This document shows positions 48,701 through 57,700 of a stretch of 64,000 nt of DNA, piece after piece. Every line of letters begins with the position of its first letter. The first letter of the stretch is position 1. The position numbers are program-made. The stretch lies in NCBI RefSeq assembly GCF_003334355.1, contig NZ_QOWP01000001.1, one strand, 5' to 3'. This DNA comes from Escherichia coli (GTDB lineage Bacteria > Pseudomonadota > Gammaproteobacteria > Enterobacterales > Enterobacteriaceae).

Positions 48701-51700
48701 TGGGTGCGGCTTTGCGCCACCTGTTCGCTGACGCTCCATAACGTCACGCCCCGCTCCACTGCCAGCGCAACCAGAATCAGCAATATCGGCAGAATCATCA
48801 CCCGCCAGCGCGCCCACTGTTTTCGGTAGCTGACGCGAGGCTGCCACGGCCCTGTCAGCAGGTTCCCTTCCGGTTCGCCATAAGTGGTAATGGCGGGCAG
48901 GGCCGTAACGGTCAGGCGTTCTGCGTCTGCGCCAGCCCATGCAGATAGCTCTTCCGGTGCAATGCCGACCACGGTTAGTGAAATCGGTAGATCCTGCTCA
49001 TTGAGCTGGGCGAGGAACATAACCGGAGCCAGCGCCCGCCCGGCGCTCCATCCCCGGCATTCATCGATGCGGCAGATAACCCGTTGCGCATCGCCAGCCA
49101 TATAGCCGCAAGGAATGGACATCCAGTCCGGCGCGACGGTAGCGCGGGTGATGCCGTTTTCCTGCAACCACTGCGCAATGTTGCGCATATGCTGTTGGTG
49201 AATCACTGCTACGATTGCCAGTTGCTGGTCGATTTTCAACGGGGCGAAATGCAGTTCATCGATATCCTGGTTCAGCTCTTCTTCCAGTAAGGCGGGCAGA
49301 ATAGTCGGTATCTGCTTGCGGGCGACATCAGGCAGTTCAACCTGCCAGACGCTGATCCATTCGCCGGGAATGTAGAGTCGAATCGCATCGGTTTGCAGCC
49401 ATTGCTGAAGCTGTTCGTCAGCAACGTCAGGCCAGATACCGTGTTCCACGTCGGGTGTACGGCGCTGCCAGCGGACGGTATCGGAGGCGCAAAGCGGGAA
49501 AAAAATCTCAAGGATGGAACTCACTCACTTTCTCCTGTCTGATGCCAGAGAACCGAAAAGTGTTGTGGGCCCATGCGGACAATTAACGAGTTCATCGTCA
49601 GTTCAATCTCATTCACGGTGATATCTGAACGCAGCCAGAAGTAATTGCTGTCCACGCTCAGGACGGTTTTTAGCTGTTTTTTAGTACGCTCATCGACGTC
49701 AGCAAGTAGCGGCTGTGCAAGAAACTGATCGACATCTTCCCAGCCCTTCGCCGGACGTTGTTGTAATAACGCCCGCGCCTGAACAGGGCTTAACCACGGG
49801 TCAAACAGCGCCTCAAGAATCACACTTTGCGTGACGTCTAAGGTATTGATGTTGATTTGCTGGCGGGTCATCGGCAGCGCACAGACCAGCGGTTTCAGTT
49901 TTTGATAAAGCCCGGCGTCCATTCCCTGCACCACGCGCATCTCGCTGATATCGGCCAGCGGTTGATTGGCGGCGTAGAACGGCACCGAGCGGGCGAGATA
50001 CTCGCTGTCTTCACGGCCCAGACGCGTCTGCACGCTGCGGTCCTCGTCAATAAACTCCCACAGGCTTTCGGCTATCAGTTCGGCCCGATAAGCAGGCACA
50101 TCGAGGCGCGAGATCAGGGCAATCAGTTGTTGTACCGCGAGCGGACGTGACGCCGTTGTGGGCTGAGCGAGGGCATTCAGGTTAAAGCAGGCCTGTGCGT
50201 CACGCAGAGTGACGGCGATTTGCCCCTGCGGCAGTGGGAAAAAACGAGGGCCAGAAGCCCACGGTTGTGCCAGATGCACGCGCTTTTCATTTTTCAGGCT
50301 CAGACTGAGTGCACTCAGCGCCAGGCTTTCTGCACTGGCGCTGTACCACAGCGCCTGCTGGTACTCCTGCTGGCTGCGCGTTCGCCCAAGTTGCTGCTGC
50401 ATCCGCCCGGAAAGCGTGATGGTTACCAGCATCATAACTGCCAGCAATACCAGCACCACGACCAGTGCCATTCCGCGTTTTGGTGGTGAGGTGATCATGA
50501 TAATTGCGGCCCGCGTAACAACCAGATGCGTTCAATCTCGCCCCATTGCGGCGAATGCAGAGTCATGCGCACTGCCACAGGGATCGCCTGTACTGACGAC
50601 CAGCTCTCCTGCCAGCGCGTGCCGTCGTAGAACTGCAAATGGAGCGAATCGGCCGGAATCAACTTTTGCATTGTCGGCTTCACGCTGCCTGCGGCATCGG
50701 TCAGCGGCCAGGACAACCGTTCGAGATAACCGTCATGAATGCGGTAACCGACGGTGAGCAGATTGCTGCGTGGCATACGCATCAACGGGTTAACCACACC
50801 GCCGCGCACAAAACGCATTCCTTCACTCTCAGACGCCAGCACGCCAGCGCCAGCCAGTAACGCTGGTTCACGCTGGCCCTGATCGCCTCTTACCGGACGC
50901 GGCATCATTTGGGTCAGATCGTGGGTCAGAAAACTCATCGTTTGCTGCATGAGGTTTAGTTTTTGATCGTGTCCGGCGACGGCGCTATTCACGCGCGTGA
51001 CGCCGTTAGTCACCTGCTGCGCCATCAGTGCCAGCGAGGCAAAAATGGCAATTGCCACCAGCATTTCCAGTAACGTGAAACCAGCGCGAGCCCTTCTCAC
51101 TGTTGGCCTCCCACGGCGCTAAACCAGGCGCGTCGTGACTGAATCACCGGCGAAAAGTCTTCGTGAAGGCTGACTTCAATATCCACCGCCTGGAGCAGCG
51201 CGTTGCCTGTACTCAGCGGTGTGGTTCGCCAGTACCAGCGGCTTCCTGCCATATCGCTCTCGCCCTGCTGCCTGACCGCCCGCTGCTCGCGGGTCATCAG
51301 GTAGAGCAGCGCGGTCTGGTTTTCAGCCACCCAGCCCGCTACCGTTTTTTCCTCAAGAATTTGCTGATTACTCAGCGCACCGCTGGCAATCTGTAACACC
51401 GCCGTGGCAGCCAGCGCAAAAATCGCCAGCGCGAGCATCACTTCCAGCAAGGTAAATCCGCGCTTCATGGCATCCTCTCATCACATTGATTGAGGGATAA
51501 CGCGCCATCGTGCGCCAGTTTTACCGCCCAACATGCGTTTTGCGCCGCCGAGTAGAAGCGCAGCGTAAACGGCGTGGCGGGTTCAAAAGGCGAAAAACGG
51601 ATCTGCGGCGTCTTCTTTTTCGCCTCTTTTTGCAGCTCCAGTTCAATATCGTGCAGCGTCAGGCGACGACGTTGCAGCTCCAGCGCATATTCCTTCTGCC

Positions 51701-54700: not shown

Positions 54701-57700
54701 TGATACGCGACACTAGCAGCGAGGCCAGTTTGCGCCCCGGACGCAGCATTTCATGTAATGTGCCGTCAACACGAAAACGGATCACCAGACTCTTTTCAAA
54801 CGTCTCAATGTGGATATCCGAAGCGCCTTCTTTGATTGCCTCTGCCAGCATGGCGTTGATCAGTTTGATGATCGGCGCATCGTCGTCGCTTTCCAGCAGA
54901 TCTTCCGTTTCCGGCAGTTCTTCCGCGAGGGTAAAAAAGTCCTCGGCAGAACCGAGATCTTCCATCAGCTGGCGAGCCTCGGAAGAGTCCCGCTGCCAGA
55001 CCGCATTCAGCCGCTGTTCAAATTCGGCCTCGTCGATTTGCCGCAGCGTAAAGGGCGCGTTCAGCCCCCGCTGCAGCTCCTGCAAAACAGAGAGCGATAG
55101 CGGATGAACGTGGAGGATCTCCAGCGACGCTTCGCACCATGCCACCAGGCTAAACCGACGGCTGAAACTGTAGGGCAGACGCACGGTGTTGGCGGTGGTT
55201 TCCTGTGCTACAGGCACCATTAACGCGTTCTCCCGGCATTGAGGAACGCGCGAACTTCCGGCGGTAAGGCCTGGTTTTGCGCTGGCAGTACCGGCTGTGC
55301 GGTGTGCGGCATCAGGCTTAAGCCTTGCTCATCGCGATAGATCTGTTCGGCGCGCATATAGTTATATTTGCGCTGCGACACGCCGTCTGCCGCCATACCG
55401 TCACGCAGAATGGTCGGACGGATAAACACCATCAGGTTACGTTTTTCTTTTTTATCCGCCGTCGATTTAAACAGGTTACCAATTAATGGGATATCGCCAA
55501 GCAGCGGCACTTTCGCCACGCTTTCTCCCGCCTGGTCGTCCATCAGACCGCCAAGCACAATTAGCTCACCATCGTTAGCCAGCACGGTGGTTTTCAGTTT
55601 GCGCTCACCAAACACCACGTCGAGGCTGGTCTGTCCTTCCACCTTCGAGACTTCCTGCTCAATCACCATCTGTACCGCGTTACCTTCGTTAATCTGCGGC
55701 GTGACTTTCAGCATGATGCCGACTTTTTTCCTTTCTACTGTATTGAAAGGATTGCTGTTATTGGAGCCAACGGTAGAGCCGGTTAATACCGGAACGTCCT
55801 GACCCACCATGAAGAAGGCTTCCTGGTTGTCCAGCGTGGTGATGCTCGGCGTGGAGAGTACGTTAGAACTGGAGTCGTTTTTAACCGCCTGCACCAGCGC
55901 CATCCAGTCGCCTTTCACCACGCCAACCGCCGTACCGCTAAAGCCGGAAAGAAGCTGGGCGAGCGTGGAGAGATCGCCGTTGGTATCCGGATTAATGGTG
56001 GTAGCGCCGTTTTCACTGATCACCGTCGAGCCTTTCTGCGGTTTCGCCTGAGAAATGGCTGCCCCCAGCGTACCGATAGGGATCTGCGTACCATTAGCAA
56101 ACTGCATTAATCCGGCATCTTTCGACGCCCACTGCACGCCGAAGTTGATATTGCTACCTTCGGCAACTTCCACGATCAACGCCTCGACGTGCACCTGAGC
56201 ACGGCGAATATCCAGTTGTTCAATCACGCTTTGCAGCGACTGCATGATGTCCTGCGGTGCGGTTACAATCAGGGCATTACTGTGTTTGCTGGCGGCGATG
56301 GAGACAATCTCACGCCCGCTACCGACCGTGCCTTCCGCCTCTTCTTTAGCCGCCGTGAGCGTGCCGCTGACCTGCTTCAGTACATCGACCAGATCTTCGG
56401 CTTTGCTGTATTTGAGATAGAAAACCTGGCTGTTGCCGCTGCGCTCCATTTCTGAGTCCAGGCGACGGATCAGACGGCGCATTTTGTCCCGCGTGGCGGG
56501 GTCACCACTGACAATCACACTGTTGGTGCGTTCATCGGCGACAATTTGAGATTTCAGCGGCGCAGGCTGGTTCTCGCCGCTGTTTTTCGTCAGGCTTTCC
56601 AGCACGCGGGCGATTTCCGAAGCCGAGGCGTTATCCAGCGGGATCACCTCTTCAGTGCGATTACCCGCGTGATCCACACGCTGGATCACTTCCGTCAGCC
56701 GCTCAACGACGGAGGCGCGTCCGGTGAGCATAATCACGTTGGAGGGATCGTAATTAACAACGTTGCTTGAGCCTGCGCTGTCGATCATCTGGCGCAGAAT
56801 CGGTGCCAGCTCGCGTACTGACACATTACGTACCGGCACTACTTTGGTGACCATTTCATCGCCCGCGTAGTTGTCGCTGCCTTCACCAACCAGCGGCAGC
56901 GGCTCGACTTTCGCGGCACTGGATTTCACCACCTTCAGCACGTCGTTTTCCATCGGTACGACGGCATACCCCTGTGCTTCCAGCAGGTTAAGGAATAGCT
57001 GGTAATACTGACGTTCATTGAGCGGGGTCATGGTGCGAATACTCACTTTCCCCTGTACGCCCGGCCCCATAATGATGGTTTTATTAAGGTTAGCGCCGAC
57101 GGTTTCGATGAACGATTTCAGGTCGGTATCTTTAAAATTAGCGGTGAAAGTGGCTTCTTCCGCCCAGACCGGTGAACTGCATAATGCCGCTGCCAACACC
57201 AGCGGCAGTAAACGCTTTTTTGTTTTGAGGCAAGTTGTCTTCTTACGCCAGACCGACAACGTAATATCACGCCAAAACACGATGAATGATTCTCCTGGAT
57301 TAAATGCGGTTAGCGCAGCGCGATGGAAATGTCGTGGCGCGCACCCTTGCGTAAAACCGTAAGTTGAATGGAATCCATTGAAGGTAACTGCCGCATCAGA
57401 GCAATCATTGCTCGTGGATCAGTGAAATCATGCTGATTTAGCGCAATGGCGATATCGCCTTCCTTGAAACCGCTGGCATCGAACAGAGAACGATCTGCCC
57501 CCGGCTTCACTGCATAACCGACAATTCCCTCCTTACGCACAGGCGTAAGCTGGATATAGTTAAAAATTTTCTGCGGATCTTTCGCCAGTGCCTGACGCAC
57601 GGCAGTCGGGATCTCAACTGGCGCACTGACAGCAGGTTCAGCAACAGCTTGCTTTGCTTCGTCACTGATGGCTTTTTGGCGGGTCACAGCAACCGTGGAA

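Follow-up and report, generated by a model that had tools for sequence, protein, structure and literature searches.

Gene content of the T2SS-beta locus

The DNA analysed here, referred to as the window, is a stretch of 64 000 nucleotides of an Escherichia coli genome (RefSeq assembly GCF_003334355.1, contig NZ_QOWP01000001.1). Its minus strand carries, from position 47808 to 59572, the genes pppA, yghG (gspS-beta) and gspCDEFGHIJKLM, which form the chromosomal E. coli operon for the beta type II secretion system (T2SS-beta). The order of the operon is sslE-pppA-yghG-gspCDEFGHIJKLM, and its site is flanked by the pheV tRNA gene on one side and by glcA, already beyond the window, on the other. 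The co-directional run of genes was found by listing the open reading frames (ORFs) over positions 44000-60000. The whole run was then compared by megablast with 5,426 complete E. coli genomes and was matched over its full length at 98.7% identity. The matched loci are annotated sslE-pppA-gspS2(yghG)-gspC-D-E-F-G-H-I-J-K-L-yghD(gspM) and adjoin tRNA-Phe, yqgA and speC. The start codons agree with those annotated in RefSeq for an E. coli locus of 98.7% identity.

GspC, D, E, F, G, H, I, J, K and L each scored above the curated cut-off of their own NCBIfam equivalog model, and GspM above that of NF007274 (YghD, a GspM-family model). PppA and YghG had no NCBIfam match at E <= 1e-5 and were identified through Pfam (PppA) and the annotation of RefSeq orthologues. 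The core set gspC-M that characterizes a T2SS is complete, with uninterrupted ORFs in one co-directional cluster, and the accessory genes specific to the beta system (sslE, pppA and yghG/GspS-beta) are present upstream. Set against an annotated reference locus, none of the 13 machinery ORFs is shortened or has an internal stop; the genes are collinear, at the same coordinates, and the proteins have the same lengths, with 0-14 amino acid differences each. Five long plus-strand ORFs within gspD-K gave no NCBIfam match at E <= 0.01; they were dropped as genes and put down to chance, as antisense frames that arise opposite G+C-rich coding sequence. The features are listed in the table.

Features of the T2SS-beta locus (positions in the window; the arrow marks the prepilin cleavage site)
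Feature	Position	Strand	Description
sslE (yghJ)	59770..64000, 5' end beyond window	-	Lipoprotein M60 metalloprotease cargo; NF037973 matches both halves
pppA	58763..59572	-	A24 prepilin peptidase, 269 aa; PF06750 and PF01478
yghG / gspS-beta	58287..58697	-	Secretin pilotin lipoprotein, 136 aa; identical to RefSeq WP_001460060.1
gspC	57310..58269	-	TTG start; NF007242, 731.7 bits
gspD	55220..57280	-	Secretin; GTG start; stop shares 1 nt with gspE start (TAATG)
gspE	53727..55220	-	ATPase; stop shares 1 nt with gspF start (TAATG)
gspF	52504..53727	-	Inner-membrane platform protein; 16-nt spacer before gspG
gspG	52032..52487	-	Major pseudopilin; leader MNSLSRTQKPRAG↓FTLLE; own Shine-Dalgarno sequence; neither side overlapped
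gspH	51465..52028	-	Minor pseudopilin; GTG start; MPERG↓FTLLE; ATGA 4-nt overlap with gspI
gspI	51097..51468	-	Minor pseudopilin; MKRG↓FTLLE; GTGA 4-nt overlap with gspJ
gspJ	50495..51100	-	Minor pseudopilin; GTG start; MRRARAG↓FTLLE; ATGA 4-nt overlap with gspK
gspK	49521..50498	-	Tip pseudopilin; MITSPPKRG↓MALVV; GTGA 4-nt overlap with gspL
gspL	48346..49524	-	GTG start immediately after in-frame TGA
gspM (yghD)	47808..48344	-	Final operon gene, 1 nt past gspL stop
REP-type (repetitive extragenic palindromic) G+C-rich hairpin	59725..59760	-	In 74-nt spacer, sslE stop to longest pppA ORF

The same 14 genes, in the same order and adjoining pheV, make up the T2SS-beta of enterotoxigenic E. coli (ETEC) H10407, enteropathogenic E. 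coli E2348/69 and E. coli W. The window proteins are 96-100% identical to the annotated E. coli T2SS-beta orthologues, and every junction has the same length as in the reference locus. The window differs from the known T2SS-beta loci by a nonsense codon at position 923 of sslE and by a rare gspC-M haplotype. The T2SS-alpha of E. coli K-12 (gspC-O) has the order C to M in common with the window, with about 65-68% DNA identity in the conserved parts; its peptidase gene stands at the 3' end and its cargo is a chitinase. The etp system of plasmid pO157, from enterohaemorrhagic E. coli (EHEC) O157:H7, is plasmid-borne, with the mucinase cargo gene stcE directly upstream; its GspK homologue EtpK is 37% identical to that of the window. 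A complete pppA-yghG-gspC-M set, 96.7% identical to the window, was also seen on the IncF conjugative plasmid CP099206.1, from a pig-farm E. coli (locus 937-18709).

Pseudopilin leaders and the GspK tip subunit

The original prediction held that GspG, GspH, GspI and GspJ carry the prepilin-peptidase site, with Gly at -1, Phe at +1 and Glu at +5, and that GspK lacks this Glu, as expected for the tip pseudopilin. All the peptides that it quoted were reproduced on re-translation: ...QKPRAG↓FTLLEVM for GspG, MPERG↓FTLLEIM for GspH, MKRG↓FTLLEVM for GspI, MRRARAG↓FTLLEML for GspJ and MITSPPKRG↓MALVVVL for GspK. GspG, H, I and J thus begin with a short basic leader followed by G↓FTLLE with Glu at +5, which is the pattern of a type IV pilin-like (class III) signal peptide, where some 20 hydrophobic residues come after the Glu. 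In the six-frame translation of the 64-kb window, GFTLLE occurs exactly four times, always at the N-terminus of one of these four proteins. This is far beyond chance (mean 0.05, maximum 1 in 200 shuffles). GspG, I and J also passed the TIGR02532 model at 30-33 bits (cut-off 16.3); GspH was unlisted for this model at E <= 1e-5, though its motif is exact.

GspK has a Gly9↓MALVV site, with Val at +5 instead of Glu. The protein, of 325 amino acids, scored 286 bits with NF037980 (cut-off 130) and has the features of its family: Gly at -1, a hydrophobic residue at +5, a larger size than the other pseudopilins and the last place in the pseudopilin block. Over residues 30-325 it has a single mismatch to chain K of PDB 3CI0, the GspK-GspI-GspJ tip complex of ETEC, and several solved GspG structures are close to the GspG of the window. 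Among the GspHIJK minor pilins, Glu5 is missing from GspK alone, which is a trait of the family, and the ETEC GspI, J and K proteins crystallise as a ternary tip complex (PMC5207764). EtpK likewise has G↓VALLV without Glu at +5. In the K-12 T2SS-alpha, the leaders of GspG, H and J have G↓F and Glu, GspI has G↓M, and GspK has G↓VALLI without Glu at +5. The reading of the prepilin motifs and of GspK as a protein without Glu5 is correct, and it is textbook knowledge. As a side observation, the annotated etpI of pO157 (locus 7851..8198) begins with MTLLEV, after the expected Gly-1 cleavage site, and the start codon in this record has probably been set downstream of the true one.

GspG, H, I, J and K would be produced as prepilin-like precursors. 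From what is known of the A24 peptidase family, PppA would be predicted to cleave just behind the conserved Gly and to add a methyl group to the N-terminus so exposed; cleavage at the G↓F and G↓M sites is expected from the motifs and from the presence of pppA. The tip complex would then be made of GspK, GspI and GspJ, and GspH would connect it to the GspG filament. GspK would have no need for Glu at +5, because no subunit sits above it.

Gene junctions and possible translational coupling

Distances between genes were counted in nucleotides on the minus strand, with negative values for overlaps. The overlaps of 1-4 nt that had been described at six junctions are all present: D/E and E/F are at -1 (TAATG), and H/I (ATGA), I/J (GTGA), J/K (ATGA, 50498..50495) and K/L (GTGA, 49524..49521) share 4 nt. 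The other junctions are F/G at +16 (with the RefSeq-type ATG start, 52487), G/H at +3, L/M at +1, C/D at +29, yghG/gspC at +17 and pppA/yghG at +65. The starts of gspH, gspI and gspJ are pinned, since the leader has to precede Gly-1, and an in-frame TGA stands immediately upstream of the GTG start of gspL. Overlaps are found at 6 of 10 junctions from gspD to gspM, against a genome-wide rate of about 15% (binomial P = 0.0014); this rate is the proportion of co-directional gene pairs that overlap in most prokaryotes (PMC6728339). A junction was considered as a candidate for coupling when stop and start of co-directional genes lie within -8 to +10 nt (PMC10666635). Eight of the 10 junctions lie in this range: D/E, E/F, G/H, H/I, I/J, J/K, K/L and L/M.

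The overlapped junctions were compared with those of the related systems. The K-12 T2SS-alpha has D/E +9, E/F -4, H/I -4, I/J -8, J/K -8 and K/L +14; unlike in the window, its L/M (-4) and M/O (-1) junctions are overlapped. The etp junctions of pO157 are D/E -1, E/F +1, G/H -4, H/I +14, I/J -4, J/K -4 and K/L -67 (this last one as annotated). On plasmid CP099206.1 they are D/E -1, E/F -1, H/I -4, I/J -4, J/K +2 and K/L -4. The overlaps at I/J and J/K are kept in both paralogous systems (T2SS-alpha and etp) and those at D/E, H/I and K/L vary. Overlaps are labile between related systems.

In E. coli, overlaps of -4 and -1 nt lead to coupling by termination-reinitiation and occur preferentially between genes whose products join in heteromeric complexes (PMC6728339; PMC10666635); operons that encode protein complexes have overlaps more often than any other kind of junction (PMC10666635). 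Strict coupling was found in 13 of the 14 overlapping pairs (-4, -1 nt) tested, five of the pairs being from E. coli (PMC6728339), and coupling is nearly abolished at a distance of about 20 nt (PMC10666635). The gsp junctions are like those studied by Huber et al. (2019, 2023), with -4 or -1 overlaps between genes of the same complex and Shine-Dalgarno (SD) sequences mostly inside the upstream gene; for the gsp junctions, coupling is a prediction from sequence. The SD duplexes of gspE, F, I, J and L (-5.8 to -10.2 kcal/mol) lie within the upstream gene, and gspK has no recognisable SD sequence (-2.6 kcal/mol). A ribosome terminating on one gsp gene would restart on the next through the 1-nt or 4-nt stop/start overlap. 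Such reinitiation would most probably be obligatory from gspJ to gspK, because gspK has no SD sequence, and only an aid at the other overlaps, because there an SD sequence sits inside the upstream gene.

Translational coupling through the operon, as put forward in the original prediction, is made plausible by the overlaps, most clearly over gspI-gspJ-gspK, whose products form the ternary tip complex, and above all at J/K. In a more speculative reading, the ATGA junction without SD sequence at gspJ/gspK may keep GspK synthesis from exceeding that of GspJ, which would restrict how many tip complexes are formed. The further claim that the operon is stoichiometrically coupled does not follow. The components of a T2SS are needed in very unequal numbers, gspG, which encodes the abundant major pseudopilin, is the very gene left unlinked on both sides, and an SD sequence precedes five of the six genes whose starts are overlapped.

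Some of these observations also weigh against coupling as such. With an SD sequence of their own in five of the six overlapped genes, independent initiation could dominate. In pO157, etpK has a strong SD sequence (-8.5 kcal/mol), and the J/K distance is +2 in the plasmid-borne T2SS-beta, so coupling at a J/K junction without SD sequence is not a conserved requirement. The lack of an SD sequence in gspK was also considered as a conserved rule; this was rejected, the etpK sequence being strong and that of the T2SS-alpha gspK intermediate. The overlaps could alternatively come from neutral genome compaction and from the easy origin of ATGA and TAATG, each gsp gene using its own ribosome-binding site. 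The workable spacing of the five SD duplexes agrees with this explanation, as do the different sets of overlapped junctions in T2SS-alpha, T2SS-beta, etp and the plasmid-borne T2SS-beta and the overlap of about 15% of co-directional pairs in prokaryotes at large. It is nevertheless an unlikely one, given the strict coupling of nearly all the overlapping pairs tested by experiment, the gspK start without SD sequence, the overlap of I/J and J/K in 3 of 3 chromosomal or pO157 systems examined and the excess of overlaps over the background rate.

The broken cargo gene and probable decay of the locus

SslE is a mucinase and biofilm lipoprotein exported by the E. coli T2SS-beta (PMC3707838; PMC5012682). 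The cargo gene had been described as broken, and this was confirmed: a single in-frame TAG (61572..61570) replaces the CAG of the reference at codon 923 of 1522, with no indel or frameshift. Any sslE product would be without the protease domain, because the HEVGH zinc site lies downstream of this stop. If the TAG is real, no full-length SslE (about 165 kDa) can be produced, and the truncated form would be of about 100 kDa. When 301 nt spanning the stop were compared with the 5,426 complete E. coli genomes, the top matches were 99.7% identical (one mismatch). This mismatch is most simply the TAG itself, and therefore no complete E. coli genome appears to share it. On plasmid CP099206.1, a 4.8-kb gene for an adenylyl cyclase toxin of the CyaA/EF/ExoY family precedes the secretion genes instead of sslE; this toxin may be what a mobile T2SS-beta exports instead.

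The part of PMC5012682 that quotes Yang et al. (2007) describes a single polycistronic mRNA of 14 genes, with a main promoter upstream of sslE on which H-NS and StpA act as repressors at low temperature. The position of this promoter is outside the window. Because of the sslE stop, about 2 kb of RNA ahead of pppA is probably untranslated, and the machinery genes cannot be taken to be expressed. Translation would find its next in-frame ATG 31 codons on, without an SD sequence. Rho-dependent polarity after the stop is possible; in a heuristic scan, C/G exceeded 1.5 in only 7 of 1924 segments of 78 nt after the stop, fewer than in gspC-M, and no strongly C-rich stretch was found. A scan for internal terminators gave 19 terminator-like sites, with 18.1 +/- 4.6 expected from shuffles, and none in the intergenic spacers of the operon; with no excess found, it speaks neither for nor against internal termination. 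No sigma-70-like site was found on the minus strand by a crude consensus scan, and internal promoters may still exist. A check for H-NS over an AT-richer yghG-pppA end had been proposed in the original prediction. A dip in composition does exist there (GC 0.44); no report of H-NS binding at this end was found, and the site in the literature is the sslE promoter.

Other elements were observed in and around the operon. The hairpin of the sslE/pppA spacer (86-nt fold, -36.9 kcal/mol, z = -2.6) could stabilise the sslE message relative to those of the machinery genes. A strong terminator with a 12-bp stem follows pheV (47668..47696, plus strand); gspM, on the other strand, ends about 110 nt away from it, and the gsp transcript may also stop there. 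The pheV tRNA-Phe gene itself (47584..47658, plus strand) has 75 nt instead of 76, with one G fewer in the GGG run (at 47650-47653) on the 3' side of the acceptor stem (GAGTCCGGCACCA in the window, GAGTCCGGGCACCA in two E. coli references). This gap would break the stem; it reflects either a true mutation of one of the two tRNA-Phe genes or a sequencing error in a homopolymer. The tRNA was the sole RNA family found by an Rfam search of the operon region. Elsewhere in the window, the small-RNA families naRNA4 (CssrE, 35683..35753, minus strand) and ES036 (CssrF, 7244..7286, plus strand) were above the gathering score.

The state of the locus was compared with that in close relatives. The housekeeping flank at 25000-47500 is 100.0% identical to that of strains PSS-12, MLI023K1, MLI023K2 and PRO_A-1412. 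In PSS-12 (NZ_AP027697.1, 3739049-3750100), an IS1 stands in place of sslE, pppA, yghG and the 5' end of gspC. The remainder has two substitutions in 10.6 kb with respect to window positions 47500..58146. Both create nonsense codons, in gspF (window 53220) and gspH (window 51483), and both are derived when compared with an outgroup; the chance that two of two random substitutions create stops is about P = 0.001. In MLI023K1 and PRO_A-1412 (records NZ_CP116913.1 and NZ_CM136169.1), an IS1-bounded deletion extends from the gss side to the middle of gspM; it takes the whole T2SS-beta and its neighbours, and the glc genes are absent from the annotation. None of the 5,426 complete E. coli genomes has a full-length gspC-M locus at >98.9% identity. 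The gspC-M haplotype is rare; apart from the truncated copy of PSS-12 (99.97%), no near-identical one was seen.

The original prediction had called the operon intact. This stands for the reading frames, all 13 of which are full length, but integrity is not evidence of function: PSS-12 differs by two substitutions only in its remaining gspC'-M stretch and yet has stops there and has lost sslE, pppA and yghG. Since the closest relatives have already lost or broken the locus, the intact ORFs and overlaps of the window may be its least-decayed state, and intactness may only reflect recent divergence. The sslE stop next to an intact machinery most likely corresponds to an early step in loss of the system in this lineage, and not to a maintained working machine. 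Against this stand the small basis of three relatives and one nonsense codon and the one-base gap in pheV, which raises the possibility of errors in the source assembly. In addition, T2SS-beta exports the heat-labile toxin in ETEC, and the machine could be kept for another cargo.

Other explanations of the locus were weighed. The machinery could already be silent, the sslE nonsense codon uncoupling about 2 kb of transcription from translation so that Rho stops the transcript before pppA; the ORFs and overlaps would then be relics. The single main promoter upstream of sslE described in the quotation from Yang et al. (2007) in PMC5012682 points in this direction, together with the distant ATG without SD sequence and the loss of the locus in close relatives. 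The stretch after the stop is not C-rich and G-poor according to the heuristic scan, and internal promoters may exist, so that this explanation was judged doubtful, while deserving some weight. That the sslE stop is a sequencing or assembly error, with all 14 genes intact, seems quite improbable. The shortened GGG run of the otherwise invariant pheV gene does resemble a homopolymer error and the TAG appears to be absent from complete E. coli genomes, but the lesion in sslE replaces C by T and involves no homopolymer indel, and the independent lesions in close relatives indicate a genuine loss of the locus in the lineage. Finally, SslE and T2SS-beta might be actively selected against in this phylogroup-A-like lineage, the window having received the first hit, in the cargo only. 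This idea, to which a low probability was given, comes from the restriction of the window nonsense to the cargo and from the independent later hits in the sister strains, which are two IS1 deletions of different extent and the two nonsense substitutions of PSS-12. Early loss is retained as the preferred reading, and the explanation as a whole (T2SS-beta identity, prepilin processing, coupling and early-loss state) was considered very probable.

The initial observation is confirmed, with the right gene and motif identities. Its interpretation is partly supported: the inference of coupling is reasonable as a prediction and overstated on stoichiometry and integrity. The overlaps do not show equal stoichiometry or a functional operon. 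The system, its prepilin motifs, the GspK tip without Glu5 and the single-operon organisation are already published, and genes in bacterial operons meet more often in stop/start overlaps than in any other way, so that little is added on these points. Two points are of modest value. The gspJ-gspK junction lends itself well to an experiment on coupling. A broken cargo gene ahead of an intact machine, beside relatives in which the machine is deleted or broken, also illustrates on a small scale the successive natural stages by which a secretion system is lost.

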